Origin: an uncultured Bacilli bacterium | GTDB taxonomy: Bacteria > Bacillota_I > Bacilli_A > RF39 > UBA660 | Assembly: GCA_934098485.1 (NCBI GenBank) | Contig: CAKOOH010000001.1 | Span: forward strand, 68,329 to 132,328 | Direction of reading: 5' to 3' | Length of the DNA: 64,000 nucleotides | Shown: piece by piece, positions 5,393 to 30,652 of the stretch | How positions within the stretch are numbered: position 1 is the stretch's first letter | Layout of the letters: each line of letters opens with the position of its first letter | Notes under the pieces: model-generated | What the model was told of the DNA's origin: nothing | Databases searched by the model: none | What the model saw: the letters and a program-made list of their open reading frames with translations, nothing else | Position numbers and translations under genes: made by a program

Positions 5393-5462
5393 ATATGTAC
5401 TCTTTTTATTTGTTTTTGAATATTATTTATACTATAATTAAAATAAGAAAGAATGTGAGAAT

Positions 5463-8774: not shown

Positions 8775-8785
8775 ACAAAAAAATA

Positions 8786-10941: not shown

Positions 10942-10971
10942 TGATATAATTAGATTAGAGAGGAGTTTATA

Positions 10972-11580
10972 ATGAATAGAGTTAAAATTAAAAATCAGGC
11001 AAAAGAGATAATTAAAGGAAACATTTGGACACTTTTGCTACCATTTATTATAGCTGGAGCTTTATCAGGATTAGTTGGTGGTTTTTCTGGATACTATAGT
11101 TCTTCTACGGAAAGTGCAACTTTAAGTGTTATTTCTTCAATAGTAGAAATAGCAGTTTTACCTTTAACGATTGGTGCGACAGCTTACGTTATGAAATTTG
11201 TTAGAAAAGAACCTGTTGATTTAAATTATATGTTTTCTTTCTATAAACAATTTTGGCCAATCTTTGTACTTACATTTTTAATTGGACTATTTACATCATT
11301 ATGGACATTATTATTTATAGTTCCAGGGATTATAGCAGCAATTAGTTATTCGATGAGTCAGTATATTTTTATTGATGGTGAAGAAGATGCTATGGAATGC
11401 ATTAGAAAAAGTAAAAAAATGATGGATGGTTATAAAGCTGATTATTTTGTATTTAATTTAAGTTTTATAGGTTGGATTTTATTAGCAATTCCAACATTTG
11501 GATTAATTTTTATTTACCTTATTCCATATATGACAGTATCACAAGTGCTTTACTATGAAGAGTTAAAAAAATTAAATTAA
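10972..11580 (+). CDS. DUF975-family integral membrane protein
   Basis: MNRVKIKNQAKEIIKGNIWTLLLPFIIAG... shows the typical DUF975 N-terminus, followed by multiple TM segments. Confidence 0.5.
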   Translation: MNRVKIKNQAKEIIKGNIWTLLLPFIIAGALSGLVGGFSGYYSSSTESATLSVISSIVEIAVLPLTIGATAYVMKFVRKEPVDLNYMFSFYKQFWPIFVLTFLIGLFTSLWTLLFIVPGIIAAISYSMSQYIFIDGEEDAMECIRKSKKMMDGYKADYFVFNLSFIGWILLAIPTFGLIFIYLIPYMTVSQVLYYEELKKLN

Positions 11581-11703
11581 GTAGTAAAATGTTTATAAAA
11601 TGAATTGACAAAGTTTTATAAATTTTATATTATAGTTATAGCATGATAGAAATGTCATGCTGATATCTCTAACGATCTTAATGTTAGAGTGTATCAACCA
11701 AAA

Positions 11704-11790: not shown

Positions 11791-11912
11791 GTAAATTTAA
11801 AAAAATACTAATTTTTTGACATAAATTATTGGTATTTTATTTTTATAATAGTATTGACATTCATACTGACAAAATATAAAATAATGATATAAAAGTCAAA
11901 AGGAGAATGTAT

Positions 11913-12539
11913 ATGGAAAAGATGACTATAAAAGAGTTTAAAGATCAAAGTAATATTGAGATAATACAGGAGCTAATGAAGGTTAATAATGGATATATTA
12001 CATCTAAACAACTAACCGAATTGGGCATTCATAGAATGTATCTTAATATTATGGTAGATAGAGGTATTATAGAAAAACTTGATAATGGAATATATCTTGA
12101 TGTTAATAAATTTCCAGATTCTTATTATGTACTTAATTTGAATTTATCAGGTATTATATATTCTCATATGACTGCATTATATTTTCATGGATTATCAATT
12201 AAAGCTCCTGATACCAAGTATGATATAACTGTTAAGAAAAATTATAATAGTGTTAAATTGAAAAATCATAATGTATTTTATGTATCTGATGATATATATG
12301 AATTAGGATTAACGGAAGTGAAAACACCATTTGGAAATAATGTTAGAGTATATGATATTGAAAGATGTATATGTGATATTATAAGGTCTAAAAAAAGAAT
12401 GGATAATGAACATATTAAATATAGTTTAAGAGAATATATTAAGAGAAAGGATAAGGATCTTGTTAAACTTTCTAAGTACGCAGATAAAATGGGTATTAAA
12501 AAAGAAGTAATGGATTTATTGGAGTGGTTATATGAATAA
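11913..12539 (+). CDS. AbiEi-like wHTH protein (type IV TA antitoxin / transcriptional regulator family)
   Basis: N-terminal ITSKQLTELGIHRMYLNIMVDRGIIEKLDNGIY resembles the AbiEi N-terminal winged helix. The C-terminal TPFGNNVRVYDIERCICDIIRSK region also resembles AbiEi. RBS AAAGGAGA lies 7 nt before ATG 11913. Confidence 0.55.
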   Translation: MEKMTIKEFKDQSNIEIIQELMKVNNGYITSKQLTELGIHRMYLNIMVDRGIIEKLDNGIYLDVNKFPDSYYVLNLNLSGIIYSHMTALYFHGLSIKAPDTKYDITVKKNYNSVKLKNHNVFYVSDDIYELGLTEVKTPFGNNVRVYDIERCICDIIRSKKRMDNEHIKYSLREYIKRKDKDLVKLSKYADKMGIKKEVMDLLEWLYE

Positions 12540-12732
12540 GATAATAGTTAATAAAATTAAATGTAAAAAATGTGGAGATGTTATTGAATCAACATATAGA
12601 TATGATTTTAAATTTTGTAAATGCGGTGCAGTTGCTGTAGATGGTGGAAAAGATTATTTAAGAAGATTAGGATATGAAGAAGATTATGAAGAATTATCTG
12701 AAGTAGTGAAGGAGGATAAAAAAGATGAATGA
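12532..12732 (+). CDS. small Zn-ribbon protein (CxxC...CxC)
   Basis: The 66-aa product KCKKCGDVIESTYRYDFKFCKCGAVAV carries four Cys residues in a zinc-ribbon arrangement. It overlaps the upstream stop by 8 nt, suggesting translational coupling. Confidence 0.45.
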   Translation: MNKIIVNKIKCKKCGDVIESTYRYDFKFCKCGAVAVDGGKDYLRRLGYEEDYEELSEVVKEDKKDE

Positions 12733-12946
12733 TAAATACGTATTTGAAACTGAAAGTTCTAGAGAAATGGAAATAGTAGCTTCTAGACATAAAATACTAT
12801 CAGTTTTAGATGATATAAAGAATTGGCGTAGAGAATTATATAAAGGATATGATAATAATGTAAGAATCTATGTAATGGTAAATTATATACTCACACTGAT
12901 TTTGAAGAAGCAAGAGATAAATTACCAAAAGATGAACATGGATTAA
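12725..12946 (+). CDS. small hypothetical protein, probably frameshifted (it continues in the -1 frame to 13038)
   Basis: Overlaps the upstream gene by 8 nt. A second frame, 12859-13038 (..DFEEARDKLPKDEHGLIKDCKHVYLDIDLIDKIDNILSEVNYLLDY), has no start codon, consistent with a frameshift. Confidence 0.3.
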   Translation: MNDKYVFETESSREMEIVASRHKILSVLDDIKNWRRELYKGYDNNVRIYVMVNYILTLILKKQEINYQKMNMD

Positions 12947-13183: not shown

Positions 13184-14452
13184 ATGCTTATAGAATTTAG
13201 TGTTAAAAATTTTTTATCATTTAAAGATAAAGTTACATTATCAATGGAAAAAGGTAATGGTGATGAAAAACTAGAAAATGTATTTACTAAAAATGATGTT
13301 GATCTGTTAAGAACAACTGCTATTTATGGAGCAAATGCATCTGGTAAAACAAATATTTTAAAAGCTTTTACTTGCGCAATATTAATGATTAGAAATTCTA
13401 ATTTTATGAATGCCACTAATAAATGGCTTTCAATAAAACCTTTCTTATTTGATAAAAAAACAAGTAAGGAACCTAGTGAATTTGAATTTATTTTCATTGC
13501 TAATGGTGTTAAATATAGATACTTCTTTAGTGCAGATGCAAATAAGATATATGATGAAATTTTAGATGCATATTATACACAGAAACCAACAAATATATTT
13601 ACAAGAACAAATACAAATGATTATGAATTTAATAATGATAAATCTAAATTAGACTCAATAGCTGCAAAGAATACTGAAAATAAACTATTTTTAACAACAG
13701 CAACAACTTGGAATTATGATAAAACAAAAGATGCATTTTTATGGTTTAGTGAAAAAATTGATACATATGATTCATTTGATAGGATATTAGATCAGGACTT
13801 AATTGAATATAGTAAAAATGATGGAGAATTAAAAGAATTTGCTTTAAAATTATTAAAAGAAGCAGATATATTTATTAAAGATATTCATGTTGATTATGAA
13901 GAAAAAGAAATGGATAATGCAATGATGGATTTGTTAATTCCACCACTTGCTAGAACTAACGGAACATTTAAAATGTCTAATGTTAGAATAGAATTAGAAC
14001 ATGAAATAACTGATGAAAATAAAAATAAACATATTTATAGTTTAAATTTCAATGATGAATCATCAGGAACACGAACATTATTTGCTTTAGCGCCATTTTT
14101 AAAAAGAGCATTTGAGAGTACAAAAACAATTGTAGTAGATGAACTAGAAAAAAGTATGCATCCAGCATTAGTAGAATTTATTGTAAAACTATTTAATGAT
14201 AAATCTGTTAATAAAGCAAATAGTCAGTTGATATTCATAACTCATGCAACAAATTTATTAACAATAGAATTATTAAGAAGAGATCAGATATGGTTTACTG
14301 AAAAAAATCCAGACACTGGTGTTTCAGAATTATATCCACTTGATTCGTTTTCAGTTAGAAAAGATGAAAATATTCAGAAAGGTTACATAAATGGTAGATA
14401 TGGGGCAGTTCCATTTATAAAAGATATTGATTCATGGCCAGAAGATATGTAG
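13184..14452 (+). CDS. AAA_21-type ABC ATPase (AbiLi/RloA-like)
   Basis: MLIEFSVKNFLSFKD...AIYGANASGKTNILKA (Walker A). Walker B IVVDELEKSMHP. RBS AGGAGGAG. Confidence 0.55.
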   Translation: MLIEFSVKNFLSFKDKVTLSMEKGNGDEKLENVFTKNDVDLLRTTAIYGANASGKTNILKAFTCAILMIRNSNFMNATNKWLSIKPFLFDKKTSKEPSEFEFIFIANGVKYRYFFSADANKIYDEILDAYYTQKPTNIFTRTNTNDYEFNNDKSKLDSIAAKNTENKLFLTTATTWNYDKTKDAFLWFSEKIDTYDSFDRILDQDLIEYSKNDGELKEFALKLLKEADIFIKDIHVDYEEKEMDNAMMDLLIPPLARTNGTFKMSNVRIELEHEITDENKNKHIYSLNFNDESSGTRTLFALAPFLKRAFESTKTIVVDELEKSMHPALVEFIVKLFNDKSVNKANSQLIFITHATNLLTIELLRRDQIWFTEKNPDTGVSELYPLDSFSVRKDENIQKGYINGRYGAVPFIKDIDSWPEDM

Positions 14453-15048
14453 CACCAAGAAAAAGTAAAAGACCAATAATTATTATTGGCTCTGAAGGTG
14501 AAGGTAGAAATACAGAAAAGTGTTATTTTGGAAACTTTTCAAATAATAGTTTAAGAATTAAATTTTCTACTGGTGGGAGTACTAATCCTAAAGGAATGGT
14601 TGATGATTTGATTAATTATATTCATAATATAGATGCTAAATCAGAAGATCACATAAGAACATTCTTAGTACTAGATACAGATTTAAGTGAAAAACGAATA
14701 AGTGAAATAAAAGAAATAGAACAGAAATGCAAAGATAATAATATTGAAATCATAACTTCGGCTCCAACATTTGAAATATGGTTTTTAATGCATTATAGAA
14801 ACAATAAATTAAAGTTTCTAACAAGTAAAGATGTAAAAAGGGAATTAGAAAAAATTAATGGTACATATTCAGAAACTATGGATATGTATAACAAAATTAA
14901 AAATCAAACAGATGATGCAAGAAGTACTGCACAATCTATTGAACAACAAATTATTAAAGATAGTGAAGATTTATTAAAATCTAATCCACATTCTAGTGTT
15001 TATAAAATATTAGATGCAATAGATGAATTTAATAATTTGAAAGATTAA
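14434..15048 (+). CDS. RloB-like protein (AbiLii-like, Toprim/OLD-related)
   Basis: RPIIIIGSEGEGRNTEKCYFGNF matches the RloB N-terminal EGExTExxYF motif. It overlaps the upstream ATPase gene by 19 nt. Confidence 0.5.
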   Translation: MARRYVAPRKSKRPIIIIGSEGEGRNTEKCYFGNFSNNSLRIKFSTGGSTNPKGMVDDLINYIHNIDAKSEDHIRTFLVLDTDLSEKRISEIKEIEQKCKDNNIEIITSAPTFEIWFLMHYRNNKLKFLTSKDVKRELEKINGTYSETMDMYNKIKNQTDDARSTAQSIEQQIIKDSEDLLKSNPHSSVYKILDAIDEFNNLKD

Positions 15049-15170: not shown

Positions 15171-17360
15171 ATGGAAGTTACTTTTAGAAATTATGAGACA
15201 AATAAAGATATTACACTTAATTCAGAAAAATCTTTATTAGTAATTTATGGTAAAAATGGTAGTGGAAAGACAACTTTATCGAGAAATAATTATTTTGATA
15301 AAAATTATGTTTTTAATGAAGATTTTATTTTTTCGAATGTTTATAATATTACAGAAACTGGTGCTTCGCAAACCGCTTCCACTAAAGAAAAATTTTCCGG
15401 ACTTTGGTTAGGCGAAGATATTGTAAAAATAAGAAAAGAAATTAGTAATATATTGGAAATTGAGAAAAAGATAAAAAATGATTTTCAAACTGAACAAACA
15501 AAATTACTAGATTTTTTTGCTAAAAATCAAATTCAAGTTAATATTTATGATAAAATCAAAGAATTAAATGATAAAGATTTTTGCTTGAATTTAGAAAAAT
15601 ATGATGAGCAAAAAGAAAACTATATTTCGACTTTAATTTTTAAAACCAATATAACAGATAAAGAAAAGTTTATTGAAAAATTAACATATTATAGAAAAAA
15701 TGATATTTATAATATGCTTGTTTCAAAGATAAAATCTAATAACTTATTATCTGAATTAATATTTGCAGATGTTAAAGGTTATATTGATAATATAAATATG
15801 AGGATAAGTCTATTAAGTAAGCAAAAAGAAATAATAGATGAAGTTGAAAAAATATATAAAGATGAAGAAATTACTAATGATCTAAAGGAAAAAATACAAG
15901 ATTGGTATGAAATCCATAAGGATAGGAATAAATGTGTATTTTGTGGCAATACAAATATAGAATCTGCAAAAACAAAATGGAAAAAAGTTTTTTTGAATGA
16001 ATTTATTGATTGCAAAAATAAATTAATAAAGGAATTAAGAATTGATTTAAATTATTGCGAAAATATTATCAATGAAAAACAATTTGCTGAAGTTGATAAA
16101 GATATTATTGACACTATTTCTAAATTGATCAACTATTTAAAAAAATACATTGAAGATACCGAAAAAAATGTATTTTCAAAATTTGAATATAAAGTGGAAT
16201 TTGTAAAAAAAGAAATTGTAGAATTAAATGATTTAATAAACAATTTAGTTAATTATGTTTTGAATAAAAAGAAAGATATCTTAGGTTTTTATCATAATTC
16301 ACAGCAATTTGTAGAAAAATTAAAAAAAGAAAAATTAGAATTAACTGATAAATTAATGGATGAAAAAGGCATTATAATAGCTGATAGTATAAACAAAAAA
16401 TTTGAAAAATTTGGATTAAATAAGAATATAAAGATAATTGTTGATAAACGCTCTACACCTCACAAATTTACATATTCTATCGAAAATCATAGTAATATTA
16501 ATGAATTAAGTGATGGTCAAAAACATAAATTAGCGCTAGCAATTTTTATGAATTATCTTGAAAATCACGATTTGAAAGGTAAAACAATTGTTATTGATGA
16601 TCCAGTGGTTTCACTAGACATTTCGAGTTATATTTTATTTAAACAATATTTATTAAATGATTTAATAATTCAAAAATTTGATGAAAGTACTAAATTGATA
16701 TTATTAACACATGATATCACATATTTATATATCCAATTGTCTAATATATTTGAGAATCAACATATGAGAAATATAACGCAAGTATTTAAATTGAATGGGG
16801 TTAAAATCGAAGAAATTCCATTAGACTTTATTAAAACAGATGACATCACACTATTTAGAGAAGCACTTGATAGTTTAACAAACATATCTGAACTAAGAAT
16901 ATTGAATGCAATAATAAATAAAATTTTCAGAATTGAAATAGACCTTAAGTTAAGGTTTTTTGGATTATCACTTACCGATAAAATAGGAATCGAAGAATTA
17001 AAAATTGATGAGGATAAAAAGAAAATAATTCGAGATTATGGGAAACACATTGTAGAAACAAGCAGAAGAGATCATCCGACCGATAGTGATATTCAACAAA
17101 GTTTATTATATTTAAAAGAAGTATCAGATATTTTAGGATTTAATGATTTTATCACAGATAACCATATTGAAAATATTAATAAAATAGTTAATGAACAAAT
17201 AGATGGACCAATAAATAGTGAGTTGTTTAATTTAATTGACTCTGTAAAGAAATTCCTAAAATCGGATAATAATGATGACTTTAAAAATTATATTGAACAT
17301 ACAAGGAATTCTTATACTCGTAATCTTATTGGTTTGGGGTTAGATGATTATTTCAATTAA
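15171..17360 (+). CDS. RloC/PrrC-like ABC ATPase with a coiled-coil zinc hook; putative abortive-infection anticodon-nuclease-type protein
   Basis: Walker A GKNGSGKTT. A long coiled coil contains CVFCGN (a CxxC hook). D-loop/Walker B IVIDDPVVSLD (AAA_13-like). The C-terminal roughly 200 aa are uncharacterised (..ETSRRDHPTDSD..). Confidence 0.4.
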   Translation: MEVTFRNYETNKDITLNSEKSLLVIYGKNGSGKTTLSRNNYFDKNYVFNEDFIFSNVYNITETGASQTASTKEKFSGLWLGEDIVKIRKEISNILEIEKKIKNDFQTEQTKLLDFFAKNQIQVNIYDKIKELNDKDFCLNLEKYDEQKENYISTLIFKTNITDKEKFIEKLTYYRKNDIYNMLVSKIKSNNLLSELIFADVKGYIDNINMRISLLSKQKEIIDEVEKIYKDEEITNDLKEKIQDWYEIHKDRNKCVFCGNTNIESAKTKWKKVFLNEFIDCKNKLIKELRIDLNYCENIINEKQFAEVDKDIIDTISKLINYLKKYIEDTEKNVFSKFEYKVEFVKKEIVELNDLINNLVNYVLNKKKDILGFYHNSQQFVEKLKKEKLELTDKLMDEKGIIIADSINKKFEKFGLNKNIKIIVDKRSTPHKFTYSIENHSNINELSDGQKHKLALAIFMNYLENHDLKGKTIVIDDPVVSLDISSYILFKQYLLNDLIIQKFDESTKLILLTHDITYLYIQLSNIFENQHMRNITQVFKLNGVKIEEIPLDFIKTDDITLFREALDSLTNISELRILNAIINKIFRIEIDLKLRFFGLSLTDKIGIEELKIDEDKKKIIRDYGKHIVETSRRDHPTDSDIQQSLLYLKEVSDILGFNDFITDNHIENINKIVNEQIDGPINSELFNLIDSVKKFLKSDNNDDFKNYIEHTRNSYTRNLIGLGLDDYFN

Positions 17361-17374
17361 AAAGACCTAGTCCA

Positions 17375-18614
17375 CTAAAGGACTAGGTCATCTTCTTTTT
17401 TATTATCTAAATCTTCATTATAATCATAATACTCAGCATCTTCATAATCAATAATTGTTTCTTTAGGTTCAGGTAATTCTTTCTGCTTACTTTCTAATAA
17501 TTTAGTATTTTGAACTTCTATAATTTGAACTATGTTCTCAAGTCTATTTTGGTACATATGAGAGTAGGTATTAAGTGTTTCATCAATTTTAGAATGTCCT
17601 AAGTACTTAGCTACTAATATTGGCTCCACTATCAATTAATAGCGATGCACAACTATGTCTAAAATCATGTACTCTTATATCTTTAACACCAGCTTTAAAA
17701 GCATTTTTAGTTTTTCTATCTCTTAATGTAGTTTCTGGTAATGGATCAATATCTCCAAAAACATACCAGTTATCATTGAAATTATAAAATCTACTACTAT
17801 CATCGTATAAATCTTTTAAGTAATTTAATAAGAAATTTGGAATAGGTATTGTTCTGTAACTAGACATTGTCTTGGGACTGGATACAGAGTAGGGTTTACC
17901 AGTATTTGGATCAGGTGTTTTAGTAATATTTTTATTTACTGATAAACAACCTTTTCTAAAGTTAATATCATTCCATGTTAATCCTCTAAGCTCACCATTT
18001 CTTAATCCATAATAGAATAATACTTGAAATGCACATACAAATTTAGGATCATCTTCAACAGATAAGAATTTTTGAAATTCTTCTGGTGTATAGAATAACA
18101 TTTCTCTTTTTCTTTCATTAGGATTAGTGAAATTAGTCATTTTATTATAAACTTTAATAAAATTAATATCATACCATTTAGTTCCAAAATTCATTATTGC
18201 TTTTAAATATTTATAAATACCATTTTTATATCTAGTAGATATCTTTTGCTTATTTATATATTGTCTCCACATTTCATAATGTCTAATATTAAATGATTCA
18301 AGTTTTATATTTAATAAAGGTTCTAAATAAACCATCATATTTTTATAATTATAAAGAGTAGTAGGTTTAACTTTATCTTCTTGATATTTATAATGCTCTT
18401 CAATTAATTCTTTAAAGGTTAAATCACTAAATTCAGTAATATTTTTAATATTAATTTTAAATTCTGCTTCATGATCTTTAGCTTCACGTCTAGTAGCAAA
18501 CTTTTTAGAGTGATATCTTCTGGGTCTTCCTAAGTAATCTCTATAAGTTAAATCGACCATCCATGTTCGACCATCTTTTGTAGCTTCTTTATTTTTTACT
18601 TGTCTTATAGCCAT
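17375..18614 (-). pseudogene. tyrosine recombinase/integrase, frameshifted (integrase paralog 1)
   Basis: ORF 17607-18614 has an N-terminal arm-binding-like domain and the catalytic-core boxes (..HDFRHSCASLL). ORF 17375-17635, in another frame, supplies LVAKYLGHSKIDETLNTYSHM, which includes the catalytic Tyr. The two ORFs overlap at 17607-17635. Confidence 0.7.
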
Positions 18615-18679
18615 AAATCTCCTCCTTTGTTATTTGTTTCATCGAATTCTCTTTGTGCTTCTTCATCCATTTGTCTTAG

Positions 18680-18975
18680 TCTTACACCTATTCTTTAGGA
18701 ACTCAAAGAAAGCCAATAAGTGGAAATGAAATACCAAATATTATAAAAGTAGTAAATAATTTTAAAGAGAATAAAGAATTTGATTATGATAAGGCTTTTG
18801 TTGTTTCTAAAGAAGAATTATTAAAAGATGATTGTTCTCTAACTTTAAATAAATACAAAAAAGTTGAAGTAGAAGAAAAAGAATATGAAAAACCAGAAGT
18901 AATTCTTAAAGAAATAATGGATATGGAGGAAGAATTTAAAACAAGACTTAAAGAACTTGGAGAGATGATTAAATG
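18680..18975 (+). pseudogene. hsdM: 3' remnant of the type I RM methyltransferase hsdM (about 98 codons, no start codon)
   Basis: The frame opens after TAG 18677-18679 with no ATG near the 5' end. The translation ...FDYDKAFVVSKEELLKDDCSLTLNKYKKVE...EEFKTRLKELGEMIK resembles an HsdM C-terminus. Its stop overlaps the hsdS start (ATGA). Confidence 0.55.
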
Positions 18976-20079
18976 AAATATCTAAAAATAAAAGATATTA
19001 TTGTAAATACTTCTCCAGAAAAAGTCCCAGTTGGAACTACTCCCTACATTGAAATAGGTGATATTGATATATTTAATAAAACATATCAACATAAAGACAA
19101 AAAATCTGTTAGCGGAGCTAAATACGCATTAAAAGACTCAATTATAGTATCAACTGTAAGGCCTACTAGAGGAGCAATTTCTATAATAAAAGAAGAAAAA
19201 ATAACTGTATCTAACGCATTTGCTATTATAAATGTAGATAAAGAACAATGTAATTTTAAATATTTATTTTATATGATAAATAGCAATAAATTTTATCAAT
19301 ATTTAGGATCTAATTCAAAGGGAGCAACTTATCCTACTTGTTCGAGAGAAGATGTTTATAATTATGAAATTGCATTACCTTCCTTAGACGAACAAAACAA
19401 AATAGTTAAAATATTCGACAACATATCTAATAGTATTATTGTTAAGAAACAACAGGTATTTAAACTAGAACAATTAATTAAATCACAATTTATCAAAATG
19501 TTTGAAAAAAATAACGATTATAAAACATTTAAATTAGAAGAGATTGGATATATGCAAACTGGTGGAACTCCATCTAGAAAAAATAATGAATATTTCAAAG
19601 GAAATATAAATTGGTTTACTGCTGGAGAATTGAATAGCCTGTTTATTAATGATTCTATTGAAAAAATAACTGTCGATGCATTAGAACATAGTTCTGCAAA
19701 ATTGTTTAAAGAAAACAGCTTATTGATAGGAATGTATGATACAGCGGCTATGAAAATGGGTATTCTAAAACATGAAGCAGCTTCGAATCAAGTATGTACA
19801 AATTTTTATCCCAAAGATAATAATGTAAATATAATTTGGTTATATTATTATCTCAACCATCACAAAGAAGATTTGCTAAACGAAAGAAAAGGAATCCGTC
19901 AAAAAAATATAAGTCTGGCTATATTAAAGAATTATTCAGTTAAGTTATATTCAATTATGATTCAAAATAAGTTTGCTAACATAGTAAAACGAATCGATAA
20001 ACAGAAATATGAATTTGAAAAACAATTAGAAAAATTAAAAGAATTACAAGAATCATTGATGAAAGAGTATTTCGGATAA
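18973..20079 (+). CDS. hsdS: type I restriction-modification specificity subunit HsdS (two TRDs)
   Basis: 368 aa with two target-recognition halves separated and followed by conserved coiled-coil repeats (LPSLDEQNKIVKIFD.. and ..LKELQESLMKEYF). Confidence 0.8.
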   Translation: MKYLKIKDIIVNTSPEKVPVGTTPYIEIGDIDIFNKTYQHKDKKSVSGAKYALKDSIIVSTVRPTRGAISIIKEEKITVSNAFAIINVDKEQCNFKYLFYMINSNKFYQYLGSNSKGATYPTCSREDVYNYEIALPSLDEQNKIVKIFDNISNSIIVKKQQVFKLEQLIKSQFIKMFEKNNDYKTFKLEEIGYMQTGGTPSRKNNEYFKGNINWFTAGELNSLFINDSIEKITVDALEHSSAKLFKENSLLIGMYDTAAMKMGILKHEAASNQVCTNFYPKDNNVNIIWLYYYLNHHKEDLLNERKGIRQKNISLAILKNYSVKLYSIMIQNKFANIVKRIDKQKYEFEKQLEKLKELQESLMKEYFG

Positions 20080-20086
20080 TGCTTTA

Positions 20087-20110
20087 AACGACTAAATAAG
20101 TCGTTTTTTT
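20087..20110 (+). terminator. rho-independent terminator after hsdS
   Basis: AACGACT-aaata-AGTCGTT hairpin followed by a T7 run. Confidence 0.6.
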
Positions 20111-20146
20111 ATGATATAATAAATGAGTTATGAGTGGTGATGAATT

Positions 20147-22876
20147 ATGGGTAGAATAAAACCAGAAGTTGAAATTAAATATATTTGTAGTGTGATTGAT
20201 AAAAACATTGTTGCACATTCTAAATTGAAAGATAGGGGATTATTATCAGAAAATATTCTTTCACAATTGAGAAATTTAACCGAAGATATAGCTATATTGA
20301 TTAATAATAAAGAGAATTCTTTAAATTTGGATTGCCATTACGATAATGTTGACACTTCAATGGATTTTGTTGCTGGAAAGAGTAAGTATAAATACATAAA
20401 GAAATTTCATGATTTTCTTCAATCTACTGTTTCTCATTATACTCCTGGAGAAAATGATGCAGAAAGATTAATGTTATATTATTTTAGATATTTGTGCATG
20501 TTTAAACAAACTTTATTAGATGAGTGTTCATTAAATATCCTTGATAAATTAGAGGATTTTCCGATATATGAAGATGAATTGACCAAAAATCATTATAAAG
20601 AGATATGCAAAAAAATAGAAGAAGTAGAAGATTTAACTAACAAAAGTTTAAAAAGAGGTAAGTTTTATGTTAATAAATGCAGGCCAATATATGCTTTTGG
20701 GAAACTATATTATGAGTTGACTTTAACAAAAGCGACAGATTATGTTAATAAATTTGAACGAATTTTAATGTATTCGAAACACTATATTCCAGATAATTAT
20801 TCTATAAAATTATCATATATAGAAAAAGAATTAAAAATTTTTTCATATGATTCTAAGATTAAAGTTATTGATAATTATATTATTTCAATTAGACCATGCG
20901 AAATAAGAAACATAGGAAGATTATTAGGAATTGATAAAAATGTTGATGATAATTATAATGAATATATTAGCTTAATGAAAATACTAAAGGAAGAAGAAAT
21001 AAATCTACTAGAATTATTAATGTCAGACAATATTAAATACAATAATTATTTAGCAATTATTAAGGAAAAAGCTCAAAACAATAATATATCTGAATTATTA
21101 GATAGATTACATGATAGATTAAGCCAAGAACTACCTGGTAATAATATTTTAAGGTATTGTTTAGTTAAAATGGAAAATTCTGTAATTAAGGATCAATTCC
21201 AACGTGTTCAAAATGAACATATTGGCAATCTTTATATTAAAAACCAAAGCATTCCATTCGATTCAATGCCATATGCTATGTCTCCATATAAGCATAATGT
21301 AAGTTGGTTTCATTTGGTTAGTGCAATTGATAATGATGGTCGAGAATATGAGCTACTTGGAAAAAGTATAAAATACAATTCAGAAATGAATAATAAATTA
21401 TATACAGATTTAGATGAAGTAGAAAAGTTTGGTAATGTAGATTCTCTTATAAAAAAATACAACGACGCACTTATATTGTATGGTATTGATTCTTCTGATA
21501 AAAGTAAGATAATTAAAGAAAATAATCTTTTGTTCATAAATTCATATGAAAAAAATTCTATTGAAATAATTAAAAAACTAAAAGCTTATATGTATAAACC
21601 ATCAGAAGAAATAATAGATACTTTTTCGAATAATATTTTAAATTATCCATTAGTAGACTTAACAGATGATAAAATAGAAATAACTAAAAAAATGTTTAAA
21701 AATAATTCTATTGTATTTATACATGGCCCTGCTGGAACTGGAAAAACTAAGATGTTAGAAGTAGTAGCAACAGCTTTTATAAATTATAAAAAAATATATT
21801 TATCTAATACAAATACATCAGTTGAAAATCTTAGAAGAAGAATTCTAAAATATGATGAAGAAAATTCCAATTTTGAAACAACATCACATTACATTAAATA
21901 TAATAATAATGATTATGATATTTTAATAATTGATGAAGGAAGTACTATCAGTAATGAAGAAATGCTTAAGGTATTAAATAAACAACAATATAAGCTGATA
22001 GTATTATCTGGAGATGTCTTTCAAATTGAATCTATAAAATATGGAAATTGGTTTTCTTTATCATATAATATATTTAAAAATGATTTCGTTTTTGAATTAA
22101 TTAAAACAAACAGAACTGATGATAAAGAATTATTAGAACTATGGAAACTAATAAGAGATAATAATGATCAGGCATATAATAAAATATGTAATCAGGAATA
22201 TTCATCTCTGCCAAATGAGAGTATTTTTAATAAAATAAGTGATGATGAAATAATATTATGTTTAAACTATGATGGATTATTTGGAATAAACAATATAAAT
22301 AAACTTCTACAAGAGAAAAACTCTAATAAAGAATATAATATTGGTATTGACTCATATAAGATTGATGATCCAATTGTATTTAATGATTGTCCTAGATTCA
22401 ATAATCTATATAATAATTTAAAGGGAAAAATTAAAAGTATAGAATTAGATGATGAAAATGATAGAGTATGGTTTACAATTTTAGTAGATGATTTTTTGCT
22501 TGATGAACCATTTAAATACGAAATACTTGATTATGTTGGATATAAGACTTTAATAAAGTTTTATGTTAATAATTTTAAGGATACTAATGATGATGAAAAT
22601 GGTTATGATCATATTATTCCATTTAATCTTGCATATGCAATTTCCATTCATAAAGCACAAGGTTTAGAATATGATTCTGTTAAAATAATAATCACTTCTA
22701 ACGTCGAAGATGATATTACAAAGAATATTTTTTATACAGCAATTACTAGAACAAAAAAATATTTAAAAATATTTTGGAGTTCTGAAAGTCAAGTAAAAAT
22801 ATTTGATCAAATGAAAAAGAGAAACAATTCGAGAGACATTTCAATTCTAAAACAAAAAATGAATATTAATTTATAA
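20147..22876 (+). CDS. 909-aa protein with a C-terminal SF1 RecD/Pif1-like helicase domain (AAA_30/UvrD_C_2-like) and a roughly 500-aa uncharacterised N-terminal region
   Basis: Motif I IFIHGPAGTGKTKM. Motif II LIIDEGSTIS. Motif III SGDVFQ. C-terminal SIHKAQGLEYDSVKII...FYTAITRTKKYLKIF. The N-terminal half has no recognisable motif. The gene has its own RBS and an upstream terminator. Confidence 0.55.
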   Translation: MGRIKPEVEIKYICSVIDKNIVAHSKLKDRGLLSENILSQLRNLTEDIAILINNKENSLNLDCHYDNVDTSMDFVAGKSKYKYIKKFHDFLQSTVSHYTPGENDAERLMLYYFRYLCMFKQTLLDECSLNILDKLEDFPIYEDELTKNHYKEICKKIEEVEDLTNKSLKRGKFYVNKCRPIYAFGKLYYELTLTKATDYVNKFERILMYSKHYIPDNYSIKLSYIEKELKIFSYDSKIKVIDNYIISIRPCEIRNIGRLLGIDKNVDDNYNEYISLMKILKEEEINLLELLMSDNIKYNNYLAIIKEKAQNNNISELLDRLHDRLSQELPGNNILRYCLVKMENSVIKDQFQRVQNEHIGNLYIKNQSIPFDSMPYAMSPYKHNVSWFHLVSAIDNDGREYELLGKSIKYNSEMNNKLYTDLDEVEKFGNVDSLIKKYNDALILYGIDSSDKSKIIKENNLLFINSYEKNSIEIIKKLKAYMYKPSEEIIDTFSNNILNYPLVDLTDDKIEITKKMFKNNSIVFIHGPAGTGKTKMLEVVATAFINYKKIYLSNTNTSVENLRRRILKYDEENSNFETTSHYIKYNNNDYDILIIDEGSTISNEEMLKVLNKQQYKLIVLSGDVFQIESIKYGNWFSLSYNIFKNDFVFELIKTNRTDDKELLELWKLIRDNNDQAYNKICNQEYSSLPNESIFNKISDDEIILCLNYDGLFGINNINKLLQEKNSNKEYNIGIDSYKIDDPIVFNDCPRFNNLYNNLKGKIKSIELDDENDRVWFTILVDDFLLDEPFKYEILDYVGYKTLIKFYVNNFKDTNDDENGYDHIIPFNLAYAISIHKAQGLEYDSVKIIITSNVEDDITKNIFYTAITRTKKYLKIFWSSESQVKIFDQMKKRNNSRDISILKQKMNINL

Positions 22877-22878
22877 TT

Positions 22879-22911
22879 TTAGGTACGTAATTAGGTACTA
22901 AAAGTACCTAA
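22879..22911 (+). repeat. TTAGGTAC tandem doublet plus inverted third copy, copy B
   Basis: TTAGGTAC at 22879-22886 and 22891-22898, then GTACCTAA at 22904-22911. This forms the 21-bp palindrome TTAGGTACtaaaaGTACCTAA. Confidence 0.7.
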
Positions 22912-22955
22912 ATGTATGTAAATTCGGATAAATCAAAATAAACTTATATGTTATT

Positions 22956-22978
22956 AAACCCTTATAAATAAAGGGTTT
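22956..22978 (+). terminator. hairpin, putative terminator
   Basis: AAACCCTT-ataaata-AAGGGTTT stem-loop with a weak T-tract. Confidence 0.3.
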
Positions 22979-23017
22979 CTTTAATATTACAAATATTGAC
23001 GTTTTGGAACTAAGGCG

Positions 23018-23057
23018 CCCCCTGAAGAGAGCATTTAACCGTGTTCTCATTTTTTTA
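23018..23057 (+). terminator. CCCCCTGAAGAGAG-hairpin-T8 terminator element, copy 2 of 3
   Basis: CCCCCTGAAGAGAG at 23018-23031. Hairpin GAGAGCA-tttaaccg-TGTTCTC (one G-U pair) followed by ATTTTTTT. Confidence 0.5.
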
Positions 23058-24784: not shown

Positions 24785-25432
24785 ATGAATGAATTAGTAC
24801 CAGAGTTTAATGATTCCTTATTAATTGATTCTTCAGATATAATCGGTGATTATTTAGAATTGGGAATTGATAGTATTTTAGATAATGAAAGTTTGAAAGA
24901 AATACCCATTATTAAGACATTTATAGGTGTAGGAAAAATTACAAAGAGTATTAGAGAAAGAAACTTAATGAAGAATCTTGCAATTTTTATAAATGAACTT
25001 AATAGTGGAAAAATAGATAAAGAAAAACTTAGTAAGCATAAGGAAGAGTTAAGACAAAATCCTAGAAAAGCAGAAAAGGAATTAGGAAGAATTTTAATAA
25101 TTTTAGAACAAACGATAGATAACATTAAATCATCAATATTAGGAAAACTCTATAAAGCATATATTAACCAAGAAATTGATTGGGATGGGTTTGCTGAATT
25201 TAGTGAAATAACTAATAGACTTTTTATGTTTGATATAAACATTCTTAACGTCATGTGGTCTAAAGAGTATAATGCTTATATCGAACAAAAAGATGATAAT
25301 TTTAGAATAGAAAGAATGTATTCATTAGGAATAATTGGTAATATATTTCCATCTATCAATGAAACTAAACATTTACATGGAAGAGTATTGAATGGATTAG
25401 GTAAAAAATATTGCGATATAATTTTTAGATAG
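24785..25432 (+). CDS. hypothetical protein (215 aa), first gene of a two-gene operon of unknown function
   Basis: Strong RBS AAGGAGGG. No recognisable motif and no TM segment. Confidence 0.5.
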   Translation: MNELVPEFNDSLLIDSSDIIGDYLELGIDSILDNESLKEIPIIKTFIGVGKITKSIRERNLMKNLAIFINELNSGKIDKEKLSKHKEELRQNPRKAEKELGRILIILEQTIDNIKSSILGKLYKAYINQEIDWDGFAEFSEITNRLFMFDINILNVMWSKEYNAYIEQKDDNFRIERMYSLGIIGNIFPSINETKHLHGRVLNGLGKKYCDIIFR

Positions 25433-25443
25433 GAGGTTAAATA

Positions 25444-26907
25444 TTGAAAGGATTAAAATTTTCTGAGTTATTTGAAGTTGAAAAAGAAATATTGGAAGAG
25501 GAGGGCTTTGTAGATCTTTCCCTTTTATGCGACTTGCCACTGTTTATAGATCCATTTTTAATATTTGGTAGTCAAAAAGAAGAATATCAATTATTAAATG
25601 ACGAAATAAATAAGTATTTATTATTTCTAAAAAATAAAGCTATTAATTATGATTTGACAAAAGGCTTATTAAAAAGTTGGTTTACTTTTTCTGAAGTCTC
25701 AAATAACTGGCTCGGGTACTGTAAATTTGGAAATAAGGGTTCTGGATTAGGAACAAAATTTGCAAAAAACTTATACTTTAATCTAAAAAACAAATTAAAT
25801 AATTTTGGTAGTAGTGATATTTTAAAAGTAGACCATATAGAAAAATTATGTCTAATAGATGACAATATAGGTTCCGATAATATTAGCGATTTTGTTGTAA
25901 ATATTATAAAAAAGTATTTCTTGGATAAAACACAAGCGTTTGCTCAAAAGTATTTAAAAAAAGAACATTGCAAATTGTTTAAAGTCGATAAAGTATACTT
26001 TGATTATGATTTAGAAAGATGGATGCCAAAGCAATACTATCTTCCATTTATCAATGATGAATATATTATATTAACACCTATAGATATGTTGACAAAAGAT
26101 TCTTCATGGTTAAACACAAATGATATGTTGGATAGATTTTATTTGATAGTAGAAAAAATACCAAATGAACAATTAAAATTTGAAATAAATAATTATTTAT
26201 CCTCACTATATAAAAAAGACATGACAAAAGAAGAAAAGAGAAAGGGACAATTAGATGTTATAAAAGAATTTCCTGTGTTGATAGATTACTATCTCTTAGA
26301 TCGTGAAGACACCATTGATGAAGCTTCTTCAAGAGGGATAGAAAAGAGCTTATTTATAGATGAAACAATACCAACAATTGTACAGGGAATAGCTAATGCA
26401 TTAAAAGAAACACAATTTTATGACTGCGATGATTCTTCATTTGAAGAGGCAAAAAAAAGAGCTTATTATTTGAAAAAATGTATTGAAGATAATGATGTTT
26501 ATAGGTTGTTCTATGATTCAAAAGGAAATGTTAGACTAACAAAAGAAGAAGATTTACAATTATTATTTAGATTAGTTTGTTTTGGTGTTATTTCTGATGT
26601 TAATAGAGAATGTAACAATGGACGAGGACCTGTAGATTATAAGTTTTCTAAATCTAACTTTGATAAGTCATTAATAGAATTTAAATTAGCTAATAATTCT
26701 AAACTAAAACAAAATTTAAAAAATCAAGTTCAAATTTACGAAAAAGCAAATGACACAAAAAAATCGATAAAAATTATTTTATATTTTACTGATAAAGAAA
26801 AAGAACGTGTAGATAAGATTTTGAAAGAATTAAAACTAACGAATGATGAATCTATTATCTTAATTGATGCAATTAATAATAAAAAGTCTGCTTCAAATGT
26901 TAAATAA
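25444..26907 (+). CDS. hypothetical 487-aa protein with a C-terminal RecB/Cas4-like PD-(D/E)xK nuclease motif
   Basis: TTG start 7 nt after RBS AGGAGG, 11 nt after the upstream stop. C-terminal ..GRGPVDYKFS...SLIEFKLANN..KNQVQIY gives the D...EFK...QxxxY pattern of RecB-family nucleases. The N-terminal roughly 350 aa are unassigned. Confidence 0.45.
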   Translation: MKGLKFSELFEVEKEILEEEGFVDLSLLCDLPLFIDPFLIFGSQKEEYQLLNDEINKYLLFLKNKAINYDLTKGLLKSWFTFSEVSNNWLGYCKFGNKGSGLGTKFAKNLYFNLKNKLNNFGSSDILKVDHIEKLCLIDDNIGSDNISDFVVNIIKKYFLDKTQAFAQKYLKKEHCKLFKVDKVYFDYDLERWMPKQYYLPFINDEYIILTPIDMLTKDSSWLNTNDMLDRFYLIVEKIPNEQLKFEINNYLSSLYKKDMTKEEKRKGQLDVIKEFPVLIDYYLLDREDTIDEASSRGIEKSLFIDETIPTIVQGIANALKETQFYDCDDSSFEEAKKRAYYLKKCIEDNDVYRLFYDSKGNVRLTKEEDLQLLFRLVCFGVISDVNRECNNGRGPVDYKFSKSNFDKSLIEFKLANNSKLKQNLKNQVQIYEKANDTKKSIKIILYFTDKEKERVDKILKELKLTNDESIILIDAINNKKSASNVK

Positions 26908-27011: not shown

Positions 27012-27362
27012 ATGGCAAGTAAAAGGCAAAAATTTAAACATTGGTCAAAAGAAGAAAAATTAAGGATAGTCAAAAAGATTGTTAATGAAGGTAAATCTAG
27101 TTATCAAGTAGCAAAAGAAGAAAATATTCAATCAACAGGAATGATTAGACATTGGGTAAAACTTTATATTGAGCAAGGAGAAAATGCATTAGTAAATAAA
27201 AAGAAACCAGGTAATCCTTTAAGTAAATATCAAAATAAAACGAACTTAACAAAAGAAGAACAATTAGAATACGAAAATATGAAATTAAGAATTGAGAATG
27301 AACTATTAAAAAAAGGATACCTAATGAAAGGAGATGGTACAATTGTAAAATTCATGAAGTAA
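27012..27362 (+). CDS. IS3-family transposase OrfA (HTH plus leucine zipper)
   Basis: MASKRQKFKHWSKEEKLRIVKKIVNEGKSSYQVAKEENIQ... is a typical IS3 OrfA. An A7 slippery run (A_AAA_AAA G) lies at 27308-27315, near its 3' end. Confidence 0.75.
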   Translation: MASKRQKFKHWSKEEKLRIVKKIVNEGKSSYQVAKEENIQSTGMIRHWVKLYIEQGENALVNKKKPGNPLSKYQNKTNLTKEEQLEYENMKLRIENELLKKGYLMKGDGTIVKFMK

Positions 27363-28249
27363 CTCAAATAAAATATGAAATAATCTAGAATTTAAGTAAG
27401 GAATATAATATTAAATCATTATGTTTGATAATGAAAGTATCTAGAAGTGGTTATTATAGATGGTTAAAAAATAAAAATATATTAAATCAACATGAAATTA
27501 ATCGTAAAGATTTAGGTGAATTAATTAAAGATATTCGCAAAAGAAAACCAAGTTACGGATATCATAAGATTAATGCAATAATAAGACGTGAAATTGGTTG
27601 AATTGTATCGGATAATTTAGTTCATAAGGTATGTAAAATATTAAATATTAAATCAAAAGCCAAACATTATAAATACAAGAAACTTGGAATGGAATCAATT
27701 AAATATTCAAATCAAATATGTGGTAATTGGAACACATCTAGACCATTTGAAAAAATAGTATCAGATACAACTACGTTTTGGTTTAAGAAAAAGAAATATG
27801 ATTGGACTTTCTATTTAGATATATTTAATAATGAAATAGTTGGTTATGATGTAAGGGATTCAATGCACGGCAATGGTATTATAAATCATAGAGAAGCACT
27901 GAATAATATGTTAAATAACAAAATAAAAAGAGGATATAAAGACCTAGAAACAATCGTTCACACTGATCAAGGTTCAGTATATTCCTCAGTGTCATTTAAC
28001 AATATATTCAATTCTTATAAAGTTACCAGATCTATGTCAAAAGCTGGCACACCAACAGATAATCCAGTTATCGAATCTAAAAATGGCTGGATTAAAAAAG
28101 AAATGTATATTGATTTTGACATAAATAATTATAACACAGTTCAAGAATTTATTGATGAATTTGTTTATGATAATAATTATTATAGACCTAGTTATGCATT
28201 AAATTATAAAACCCCCATCGAGTATAAAACTCAATTGGTGTTTAATTAG
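27314..28249 (+). pseudogene. IS3-family transposase OrfB (DDE/rve), interrupted by in-frame TAG and TGA stops
   Basis: The -1 frame contains ..SRSGYYRWLKNK..RKPSYGYHKINAII.. and the catalytic core HTDQGSVYSS..DNPVIESKNGWIKKE. In-frame stops lie at 27386-27388 (TAG) and 27599-27601 (TGA). Confidence 0.6.
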
Positions 28250-28286
28250 AACTTTTTGTGTCTACTTTTTGTTGACAACTTCAAAA

Positions 28287-29287
28287 CTAATCCTCGGTTT
28301 TATTATTATCTAAATTATCTATTACTGCAACTACTTCATCTAAAGTGCTTGTAAATAGATGTGAATAAGTTTTTAAAGTTTCTTCAACTTTTGTGTGACC
28401 TAAGTATTTTGCTACAACTTGAACATTAGCTCCTTTATTAACTAAAAGAGATGCACATGAATGTCTAAAATCGTGTAATCTAATTTGCTTAACATTAGCA
28501 AATTTACAGTTAACATTTTTATGATTAGTAAGTGTATTGCTACATACAGGAAGCATGTCTCCAGCAACAAAGAAATTATCATTGAATCCTGGTATCTTTT
28601 CTGCCTCGTTTTTCACCATTTTAAGGTCATTTGTGAGGACTTGTGGCATTTTTAATATTCTTATACTACTTTTTGTTTTAGGAACCGAGAATCACCAATT
28701 TTTAATGGAACCACGACGGTCATTAATTTGCTTGGAGATACTTAAAGTTCTATCTTTAAAATTGATATCTTTCCATTGTAATCCTCTAAGCACTCCACGT
28801 CTTAATCCACAGTAATATAATATTTCAAAAATACCAATCTATTTGATATCAGTTTCAACAGAAAGAAATTGTTTAAATTCTTCATAAGTAAAAAATAATT
28901 GTTCTTTAGGAAATTCATTAGAATCATTAAAGTTATACATTTTAGGATATACCTTAGCAAAGTTAAACTCATGCCAAGCAGTAGCATAATTCAAAATAGT
29001 TTTTAATAATTTATATATGTCATTTTTAGTTCTTGTAGCAAGATGAGTACTATTTATTTCATCATGCCATCTTTCAAAAGTAGGGTGGTTAAAATCTTTA
29101 AGTTTAACTTTATATAATGATTTTAAATAAGGCAATTTGTTGTTATAACCATATAATGTATTTTCCTTAACTTTATCTTTTCTAAAATATACTTTTCCAA
29201 ATAACTATCATAGTTATTATAAAAAGGATCAATAACCTTTTCACATTCTTCATCACTTATATCTTCATCAGTACATTTCCTTAACAT
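28287..29287 (-). pseudogene. tyrosine integrase paralog 2, multiply frameshifted and 3'-truncated by the IS
   Basis: Fragments 28287-28649 (..RLHDFRHSCASLLVNKGANVQVVAKYLGHTKVEETLKTYSHL..) and 28839-29135 are paralogous to integrase 1 (..FLSVEDDPK versus FLSVETDIK). The start is ATG 29287 with RBS GGAGGTG. The last codons are encoded by the IS right inverted repeat. Confidence 0.6.
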
Positions 29288-29416: not shown

Positions 29417-30652
29417 ATGGAACTAATAAACAACGTGAATAATTTAGATGGAAAAAATTGGCTTAGAAATGCAATTAATTTTTATGAATTAAAAACATTT
29501 GATTTAGAAGAAATACAAAAGAAGTTCTATGACCTTTGTTATAAAAAAAGAACTTCAGGAAAAACATTTTTAATTAATAGTGAATATAAGATTTTAAATT
29601 ATGATTTCACTTTTCAATATATTCATCATTTTGAAGAGTTAAAAAAAACATTTGATATAATAATAAATTCTTCATATAATTCTTATCATGCAATTTTAGT
29701 GGATGATGAATTAGATAACAATATTTTAATTTCAAAATCTATAACTGAATATGTAGAAAATTCTGGATTAGAATATAGAGGAAAGATAATTGTTAATTTC
29801 AAAGAAGAAAATATAACAAAAAAGGTTTTCTTAATACTTAATAGATTATCAGAGGTTAAACAAATAAAGTTAAAAAAACATGAAATCAACCACGAAAAGA
29901 AATCTGAATATGTTATATCAAGTAAAAGTAAAATTGATAAAATTGGATTAAAGCATCCTGCACCATATAGCTACAATGATATAGAATCGCTAATTGAAAA
30001 AGAAAATATACATGATAAGGTAATTTTGGATCCATTCTTAGGAATTGGTTCAACAATCATTGGAACTTATAAAACTAATTACAATATAGGGATTGAACTT
30101 AATAAAGAATATGTTGAGTTAATAAAAGAAAGAATTAAATTTTTAAATATCAGTGATTTAGATGATAGTAAATATAAAATAATTAATGGTAATTCTTCAA
30201 AAGAAATAAAAAAGATAGATCAAAATATTGATGTTGTTATTACATCACCACCATACTTCAATATTTTAAAAAATAAAAGTAAAGGTGTAAGACATGATAA
30301 AAGTCAAACAAGACAGGGGGTTGAATATTATAGTGAGTTAAAAGATGATATTGGGAATTTAGATGAATATGATGATTACTTAAAGGCAATGGAAAAAATA
30401 TTCAAAGAGTCATTTAATAAAATGAATAATGGCGGAAAGTTTTATTTAATAATTAGTGATTTTACAATAAATAAGAAAGAAACTGATATTCATTCTGATA
30501 TGATCCTTTTAATGAATAAAGTAGGATTTACATATAATGGTACTTCATATATCTTGCAAAATCAAAAAGCAATATATCCTTTTGGATATCCATATAAAAT
30601 TGTATTAAATCATATTTTTCAATATATAATTGTTTTTGAAAAGAGGTGGTAG
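29417..30652 (+). CDS. DNA methyltransferase (N4/N6 family, PF01555-like), RM operon gene 1
   Basis: AdoMet motif ILDPFLGIGSTIIG and catalytic motif VVITSPPYFN. The product is 411 aa with an N-terminal region of about 180 aa of unknown function. Confidence 0.65.
   Translation: MELINNVNNLDGKNWLRNAINFYELKTFDLEEIQKKFYDLCYKKRTSGKTFLINSEYKILNYDFTFQYIHHFEELKKTFDIIINSSYNSYHAILVDDELDNNILISKSITEYVENSGLEYRGKIIVNFKEENITKKVFLILNRLSEVKQIKLKKHEINHEKKSEYVISSKSKIDKIGLKHPAPYSYNDIESLIEKENIHDKVILDPFLGIGSTIIGTYKTNYNIGIELNKEYVELIKERIKFLNISDLDDSKYKIINGNSSKEIKKIDQNIDVVITSPPYFNILKNKSKGVRHDKSQTRQGVEYYSELKDDIGNLDEYDDYLKAMEKIFKESFNKMNNGGKFYLIISDFTINKKETDIHSDMILLMNKVGFTYNGTSYILQNQKAIYPFGYPYKIVLNHIFQYIIVFEKRW

Follow-up and report, generated by a model that had tools for sequence, protein, structure and literature searches.

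A gene of 909 codons in a 64,000-nucleotide (nt) stretch of contig CAKOOH010000001.1 from an uncultured Bacilli bacterium (the whole stretch is called the window below) encodes a full-length member of PDC-S53, a family catalogued in the defence-annotation tool PADLOC. The gene lies at 20147..22876 on the plus strand, and its product matches the PDC-S53 model (PDLC05035) over its full length, residues 8-906 aligning with model positions 6-895 of 900 (E = 3.6e-287, 953 bits). Members of the family have a fixed two-part architecture, in which a helicase with intact ATPase/helicase motifs follows an N-terminal half whose modelled fold is confident and is neither that of a nuclease nor that of a relaxase. 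Mobile elements spread this cargo gene, which in many lineages occupies the 3' end of restriction-modification (R-M) operons. We infer that the protein is an anti-phage/anti-plasmid factor working alongside restriction. The more specific reading, to which we give about an even chance, is that of a single-protein companion helicase that travels with R-M systems and acts on foreign single-stranded DNA (ssDNA) or DNA ends.

The first-pass annotation of this DNA had regarded the gene as a possible new defence gene built like the nuclease-helicase protein Nhi. Its novelty is lost with the assignment to PDC-S53, from which no family-level difference was found (same length, same single-gene organisation, end-to-end match). 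The defence role that it suggested is still the best supported one. Linkage to R-M, which it had overlooked, recurs across the family. The other PADLOC matches at E ≤ 1 were PDC-S68 (in the C-terminal part), GajB, PDC-M16A, MkoA, DinG, mad8 and TRIP13, and those to PDC-S68, GajB, PDC-M16A and MkoA cover the helicase motifs only. No model named Nhi, Hhe, AbiO or Hna was matched at this threshold; models of Nhi and AbiO are included in PADLOC-DB v2. The PDC families derive from the work of Payne et al. 2024 (bioRxiv 10.1101/2024.01.29.577857), in which 'guilt-by-embedding' was used to collect genes lying within the loci of BREX, DISARM and type I R-M systems, yielding 145 candidates, and the R-M linkage described here agrees with this discovery route. 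PDC-S53 is not mentioned in the portion of the supplement of that work that precedes the single-gene assignments, and a literature search covering PDC-S53, SF1B helicase defences, rlo genes and hsdS-linked RecD-like helicases returned no study of the family. Its relatives, labelled 'ATP-dependent RecD-like DNA helicase' in RefSeq, occur in Bacillota, Bacteroidota and Actinomycetota, where they are distributed patchily on plasmids, temperate phages and other mobile elements.

The open reading frame (ORF) agrees with its initial description as a stand-alone gene. It begins with ATG and runs uninterrupted through 909 codons to its stop codon, and the opposite strand is rich in stops. An identical protein of 909 amino acids (aa) is encoded, in the same arrangement, by 16 metagenome contigs from the human gut; because of this, and because the N-terminal half alone matches 655 clusters of proteins, the gene is not a product of chance. 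On the same strand, a terminator-like hairpin with an 8-bp stem, followed by seven T residues, separates it from the preceding gene, hsdS (20086..20106; ΔG -7.9 kcal/mol, z -3.87 against shuffled sequences). An extended -10 promoter-like sequence, TGaTATAAT, with no good -35 (20112..20120), and a Shine-Dalgarno-like GAGTGGTGA placed 6 nt 5' of the ATG (20132..20140) were then read from the sequence. Since the hairpin with its U7 tract, the extended -10 and the Shine-Dalgarno-like element all precede the start codon, transcription of the helicase gene as a separate unit, as had been claimed, is plausible, with a promoter that is probably its own; consensus features are the sole basis for this. 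Two terminator-like hairpins follow the gene (22956..23048, plus strand), the second lying at the right edge of the shared block described below. The gene also keeps its assigned place as a single-gene helicase fusion within a defence island.

All superfamily 1 (SF1) motifs had been placed in the C-terminal part of the protein, and each of them is indeed located within aa 505-909 (21659..22873, plus strand). Matches in Pfam, NCBIfam, PHROG and PDB sequences, together with the motifs, define this region as an SF1B helicase core of the RecD/Dda-like type. Walker A (GPAGTGKT) is located at aa 527-534 (nt 21725-21748), motif II (DEGS) at aa 596-599 (nt 21932-21943), motif III (SGDVFQ) at aa 621-626 (nt 22007-22024), motif V (IHKAQGLEYDSV) at aa 834-845 (nt 22646-22681) and motif VI (TAITRTKK) at aa 864-871 (nt 22736-22759), all on the plus strand. 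Walker A and motifs Ia, II, III, V and VI are conserved at a level of at least 90% among 103 relatives. The Pfam SF1 helicase domains are confined to approximately aa 505-875 and exceed their gathering cut-offs: Viral_helicase1 with 59 bits (cut-off 21), AAA_30 with 54 (27) and UvrD_C_2 with 42 (27.4); AAA_11 stays under its threshold and AAA_12 gives no match. The PHROG model 'Dda-like helicase' matches the motor with E = 4e-38, and the nearest PDB sequences are those of RecD and RecD2, with the match limited to the surroundings of motifs V and VI. The motor is thus predicted to be a divergent but intact SF1B helicase, and superfamily membership suggests that it moves with 5'->3' polarity. 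It shares Walker A, motifs Ia, II, III, V and VI and a UvrD_C_2 C-terminal domain with RecD, RecD2 and phage Dda. It differs from RecD and RecD2 in its unique 500-aa N-terminal module and in scoring far under their NCBIfam equivalog cut-offs (93 bits against 310 for TIGR01447, 90 against 500 for TIGR01448). The gene also stands outside any RecBCD operon, and a separate AddAB-like locus is present in the window at 42828-48228.

The N-terminal half was searched by profile and by structure. Residues 1-500 have no match in Pfam, NCBIfam or PHROGs, nor among PDB sequences searched with phmmer. A profile built from 27 sequences gave no PDB match, and 27 fragment sequences compared with Pfam at E ≤ 1 gave nothing meaningful. 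Among 1.84 billion cluster representatives, phmmer returned 655 matches at E ≤ 1e-3 (463 at E ≤ 1e-10). Because nearly all of these, which are clusters at 50% identity, are proteins of about 900 aa with the domain at residues 1-480, the domain is essentially always fused to a PDC-S53-type helicase. An AlphaFold2 (AF2) model based on 22 close homologues reached a pLDDT (predicted local distance difference test) of 65 and was replaced by one based on an alignment of 103 sequences, with pLDDT 94.0 and pTM (predicted template modelling score) 0.90. In this model, a helical bundle (aa 6-158; 20162..20620) is followed by a beta domain of five long consecutive strands (aa 173-246; 20663..20884) and by a linker region leading to the motor (aa 250-500; 20894..21646), helical at 250-350 and mixed at 351-500, all encoded on the plus strand. 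In Foldseek searches, neither the PDB nor BFVD gave a match at E ≤ 0.001; the top PDB structure had an E of 0.28, and the top BFVD entry, the RecD-like helicase of a Pithovirus, had 2.4e-3 and a low TM. No relaxase or nuclease fold was among the matches. The only recurrent local similarity was to oligonucleotide/oligosaccharide-binding (OB) folds, namely SSB, RPA70N, MCM N-terminal domains and phage SSBs, with probabilities up to 1.0, target-normalised TM of 0.4-0.53 and E > 0.1. Placing these matches on the beta region would make aa 173-246 an OB-like domain. The high-confidence model of an N-terminal half to which no solved or viral structure is significantly similar, together with its putative OB-like core, is new here.

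Conservation, examined across 100 full-length representatives, shows that this half is under constraint. Mean identity to the query is 30% for aa 1-500 (evenly distributed, with 28-32% across its sub-domains) and 42% for the helicase half, and about 20 residues of the N-terminal half are near-invariant; this list of residues is likewise new. It includes R42, E46, S96, H97 and Y112 in the bundle, Y174, Y189, E190, K202 and Y218 in the beta domain, R249 and E252 just C-terminal of it, and G331, N333, Y337, Q350, F371, P375, H383 and N439 in aa 250-500, where a loop motif IPFDxMPF..SL..HNP is also found. Judged from the alignment, this pattern points to a conserved site for a ligand or for catalysis, and it does not look like that of a hypervariable surface tracking phage proteins. 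The N-terminal half, in which the first pass had recognised no nuclease or sensor motif, is thus not featureless: it has a defined predicted fold and its near-invariant residues. The acidic, basic and His residues among the latter (R42, E46, H97, E190, K202, R249, E252 and H383) are spread over the sub-domains. Those Tyr, Lys and Arg residues that lie within the beta domain or directly behind it would suit ssDNA binding, and the invariant His and Glu leave room for an undescribed enzymatic site.

This last point is the starting point of the first rival explanation, in which the N-terminal half is a nuclease or other enzyme of undescribed fold and the helicase feeds DNA to it, as in Nhi, AbiO and Hna. 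Effectors are usual in single-protein defences, AbiO and Nhi have the same order of domains, and the invariant residues (two His, three Glu, two Arg and one Lys) could come together in one active site at an interface. The likeness to Nhi and AbiO comprises a single polypeptide, an accessory domain N-terminal to an SF1 helicase and a location in defence islands or on plasmids; in addition, the protein weakly resembles the helicase domain of Schlafen group 3 in Pfam, a similarity that AbiO is also noted to have. However, those proteins combine a PD-(D/E)XK-type nuclease with a Upf1-like motor, whereas the PDC-S53 protein has a RecD/Dda-like motor (AAA_30 and UvrD_C_2) and an N-terminal half for which Pfam, PADLOC, PHROG and PDB sequence and profile searches gave no nuclease match, and Foldseek, despite the high-confidence model, no nuclease fold. 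The beta region consists of strands only, a run of five, and not of the alpha-beta-beta-beta-alpha-beta arrangement of PD-(D/E)XK enzymes, and the order K202-F-D/E204 is the reverse of (D/E)xK. HEPN, PD-(D/E)XK, HNH and PLD motifs were also sought by eye and rejected, as spacing and order do not fit and the fold gives no support. The analogy with Nhi drawn in the first pass is accordingly not retained, and we consider a cryptic enzymatic effector unlikely.

The genomic neighbourhoods of the family were compared in 23 independent lineages, a small and non-random sample whose fractions are indicative only; one locus (L015) was counted as ambiguous. Restriction or methylase genes lie no more than three genes from the helicase gene in about 13 of the 23, mostly upstream on the same strand, and they represent R-M types I, II, III and IV; linkage to several types, beyond type I, is a new observation. 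In the following loci, R-M genes immediately precede the helicase gene and have the same orientation. Type I operons have the order hsdR-hsdM-hsdS-helicase with a 60-nt gap (L018/L019), hsdR-hsdM-AAA_14/DUF4143-hsdS-helicase (L035/L036, about 30% identity; 3-nt gap in L035), hsdM-hsdS-hsdR-DUF4357-helicase (L022) and, in the window and its closest match L007, hsdM-hsdS-helicase, with hsdM truncated in the window. Type III Mod and Res genes precede the helicase gene in L009/L010 and L020. Type II systems are represented by an N6_N4 methylase with DpnII (L017) and by a C5 methylase with Bsp6I and GIY-YIG (L012/L024-27), the latter located at one edge of an integrative element, of which the other flank is variable. 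An EcoRI methylase with GmrSD/HNH (L011) and two type IV-like restriction endonucleases (L016) complete this group. In L008, methylases are found upstream on the opposite strand.

Two temperate phages (L029 and L030), which are otherwise unrelated and have Terrisporobacter and Erysipelothrix as hosts, share a 3.8-kb cassette at 82% nt identity (7910-11666 and 7910-11667, respectively) with genes for a 278-aa protein that has no match in Pfam and for a helicase of the PDC-S53 family. It is followed by a gene for a helix-turn-helix-like repressor of about 70 aa (78% aa identity between the phages), is divergent from the phage's own helicase, primase and polymerase genes and is flanked by methylases or a type IIS R-M system. 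The comparison indicates that the cassette is horizontally exchanged. The 278-aa gene was considered as a conserved partner and rejected, as it occurs in the two phages only and the genes of equal length in L018/L019 are unrelated to it. No neighbour family is common across the lineages, and no conserved partner gene was found. Further defence neighbours are AbiLi (L014), PDC-S49 (L013) and PDC-S20 (L021), and in a small MOBQ plasmid (L031) a toxin-antitoxin pair is located near the helicase gene. In L035, hsdM and hsdS are separated by the gene of an AAA_14/DUF4143 ATPase (3261-4787), and a 451-aa protein of no known role is encoded with a PIN7 protein 3' of the helicase gene (8779-10762), so that accessory genes are stacked on one R-M locus.

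In the window, the helicase gene belongs to a block (17350..23031) that is shared at 96-98% nt identity, as determined by blastn, with L007, a locus from a metagenome-assembled genome (CAKOLO01) of the same uncultured Bacilli species and the closest match (98%), in which it occupies 1358-10886 and has unrelated flanks. The block contains the gene of a tyrosine recombinase/integrase of 335 aa (17607..18614, minus strand; Pfam Phage_integrase and Arm-DNA-bind_4). At the junction 18688..18689, 3.84 kb of L007 (2701-6541) is absent from the window, and the segment lost contains a Mob_Pre relaxase gene, three small ORFs and the 5' part of hsdM, 383 codons long. What remains of hsdM is its final 95 codons and the stop (18689..18976, plus strand), which overlap hsdS by ATGA; their translation shares 98% identity with the corresponding stretch, residues 384-478, of the HsdM of L007, which is intact and has 478 aa. 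The hsdS gene itself is intact (18973..20079, plus strand) and encodes a 368-aa type I specificity subunit (Pfam Methylase_S in two stretches, E 7e-33; PADLOC Specificity_I). The scan of window ORFs revealed neither an intact hsdM nor an hsdR; the large ones at 41433-48228 are UvrD- and AddAB-like. The hsdS gene is thus an orphan, as first annotated, because the deletion removed most of hsdM; it is better described as the remnant of an hsdM-hsdS pair, and this explanation of its orphan state is new. Its type I system in the window is, by gene content, dead. Since hsdM is truncated, the window helicase must therefore act alone or be a recent remnant. Phase variation or a shufflon of hsdS driven by the adjoining integrase was considered and rejected, as there is a single hsdS copy and the comparison with L007 reveals a simple deletion. 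The block looks like a small integrative mobilisable element, with an integrase, a relaxase and an hsdM-hsdS-helicase cargo, that has decayed in the window strain; its ends have no att-like direct repeats of at least 10 nt, and base composition does not contrast between block and flanks. The window thus presents a catalogued candidate on a decayed mobile element, a mostly ordinary result in itself.

The recurrent position of the helicase gene as the last in R-M operons, which it follows after just 3 nt in L035, is compatible with a second rival explanation, in which the protein is inhibited by the R-M enzyme or monitors it and fires when this enzyme is disabled by an anti-restriction factor of a phage. 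PrrC is the textbook gene embedded in type I R-M, and PrrC and RloC resemble PDC-S53 in that their genes are accessories which lie within type I R-M operons or close them; the window, too, has an AAA_21/RloB-like pair and an AAA_13 protein close by. PrrC and RloC are ABC-ATPase anticodon nucleases, whereas PDC-S53 is an SF1B helicase with no recognisable toxic domain that accompanies R-M types I-IV, among which there is no shared subunit to bind. In approximately 10 of the 23 lineages, among them phage and plasmid copies, no restriction enzyme is encoded next to the helicase, and the helicase ORF of the window is intact and identical on 16 contigs even though its R-M partner was destroyed. With no evident toxic effector either, a guard of this kind is quite unlikely.

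According to a third explanation, the helicase would serve the replication, transfer or recombination of its carrier element and would not be a defence protein. This finds some agreement in the integrase and Mob_Pre relaxase of the L007 block, in a 10.6-kb Lactiplantibacillus plantarum plasmid in which the gene follows rep and DUF536, in its presence in phages and close to recombinases, and in a weak similarity of the motor to TraA-type helicase domains. Like TraA, TrwC and TraI, the protein is long, is carried by mobile elements and has a C-terminal SF1B RecD-like motor; in contrast to them, its N-terminal half has no HUH relaxase domain or fold and no relaxase Pfam match, and L007 encodes a separate Mob_Pre relaxase. 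The first-pass annotation had named a relaxase or TraA-like fold and membership in a known Nhi or Hhe family as outcomes that would speak against it, and neither was found. TraA-type models match aa ~827-892 only, over the C-terminal motifs, and TraA_Ti scores 44 bits against a cut-off of 590. Linkage to relaxase, rep or type IV secretion system genes is inconsistent, both phages carry, on the opposite strand, genes of their own for a replicative helicase, primase or polymerase, and the gene occurs at the 3' end of chromosomal R-M operons. Moreover, the window lost the relaxase and kept an intact helicase. A maintenance function is distinctly improbable. A housekeeping RecD2-like repair paralogue, to which the RefSeq labels and the nearest solved sequences might point, is excluded for practical purposes by the scores far below the RecD/RecD2 cut-offs, by flanks that differ between strains, by the patchy distribution on mobile elements across phyla and by an N-terminal half unrelated to that of RecD2.

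For the companion helicase that we favour, the following mechanism can be proposed. Through its OB-like domain, in which Tyr, Lys and Arg are conserved, the N-terminal module would bind ssDNA or ends on invading DNA, the candidate substrates being restriction products or replication or recombination intermediates of the invader. The SF1B motor would then translocate 5'->3' and unwind or strip the bound intermediates, whereby repair or replication of the invader would be blocked, or its DNA would be passed to host nucleases. A comparison is offered by DruE of Druantia III-A, which is an SF2 helicase and has no sequence or fold relationship to the PDC-S53 protein. That system provides a precedent for helicase-driven phage clearance at exposed ssDNA, although DruE differs in that it unwinds 3'->5', is dimeric and requires DruH (bioRxiv 10.64898/2026.05.13.724758). 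Going further, the family may provide a nuclease-free add-on motor for all R-M types, with an N-terminal module that senses the ssDNA or ends produced on foreign DNA by restriction or by its stalling and a motor that then takes these molecules apart, or its approximately 20 conserved residues may form an enzyme site of a new fold; this proposal is tentative and, in our estimate, doubtful. An add-on motor may represent a second defence layer, physically independent of the R-M enzyme and selected to travel with it.

Several points weigh against the companion-helicase reading. All 145 PDCs entered PADLOC explicitly untested (bioRxiv 10.1101/2024.01.29.577857), and most of them were still awaiting validation in 2026. 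Six of the 23 lineages (L028, L032, L034 and L037-L039) have no defence context, and in the window the cognate R-M system is defective. The 5'->3' polarity and the DNA binding attributed to the protein are predicted from its family membership, and the putative OB assignment draws on local Foldseek matches with E > 0.1. In addition, no toxic or nuclease effector is recognisable in the 909-aa protein, and how phages would be blocked by unwinding alone is unexplained.

Other genes of the window complete the picture of the island. Upstream, an AbiEi antitoxin-like gene (11907-12946; PADLOC AbiEi, E 7e-61) is followed by ORFs of 66 aa (DUF7695) and 73 aa that are not the AbiEii nucleotidyltransferase; it is either an orphan or has an unrecognised partner, and a 65%-identical AbiEi adjoins the helicase gene in L020. 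An AAA_21 ATPase and RloB-like pair (13184-15048; PADLOC AbiLi/AbiLii), a known two-gene defence, lies just upstream in the island, and an AbiLi homologue is encoded upstream of the helicase in L014. A 729-aa AAA_13 ATPase with a weak PDC-S06 match (15171-17360) is intact in the window and split into two ORFs of about 366 aa in L002 (4987-7214), the same 366-aa distal ORF being present in L003 (112-1212); the split looks like a frameshift polymorphism. Downstream, a pair of 215-aa and 487-aa proteins (24785-26907; DUF8370/DUF8371) gives a weak PDC-M36A match, and a 30%-identical homologue of the 487-aa protein is encoded directly downstream of the helicase in L008 (10889-12310). IS3-family transposase fragments (HTH_Tnp_1; rve) and a truncated 120-aa integrase (27012-28649) are signs of repeated insertion and decay. 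Two adjoining methyltransferase genes (29417-33402; N6_N4_Mtase and an N6_Mtase/Eco57I-like protein, PADLOC 'mad2'), followed by ORFs of 164 and 334 aa with no Pfam match, could belong to an R-M or methylation-associated defence whose nuclease is unrecognised. On the minus strand (41433-48228), a UvrD-type helicase (1033 aa) and a PD-(D/E)XK protein (771 aa) resemble AddA and AddB, with a 461-aa UvrD-like helicase adjoining; these genes are probably housekeeping and represent host end-processing machinery that a defence helicase might feed.

The PDC-S53 family is large (655 clusters at 50% identity), occurs in several phyla and is flagged by a standard defence-annotation tool, and its N-terminal half has so far been undescribed. 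With the aid of the confident model and the short residue list, the question of its function can be put to a direct test. If the favoured reading is true, a common unannotated last gene of R-M operons would be explained, and a nuclease-free helicase that protects cells and cooperates with unrelated R-M types would represent a new effector logic in bacterial immunity.

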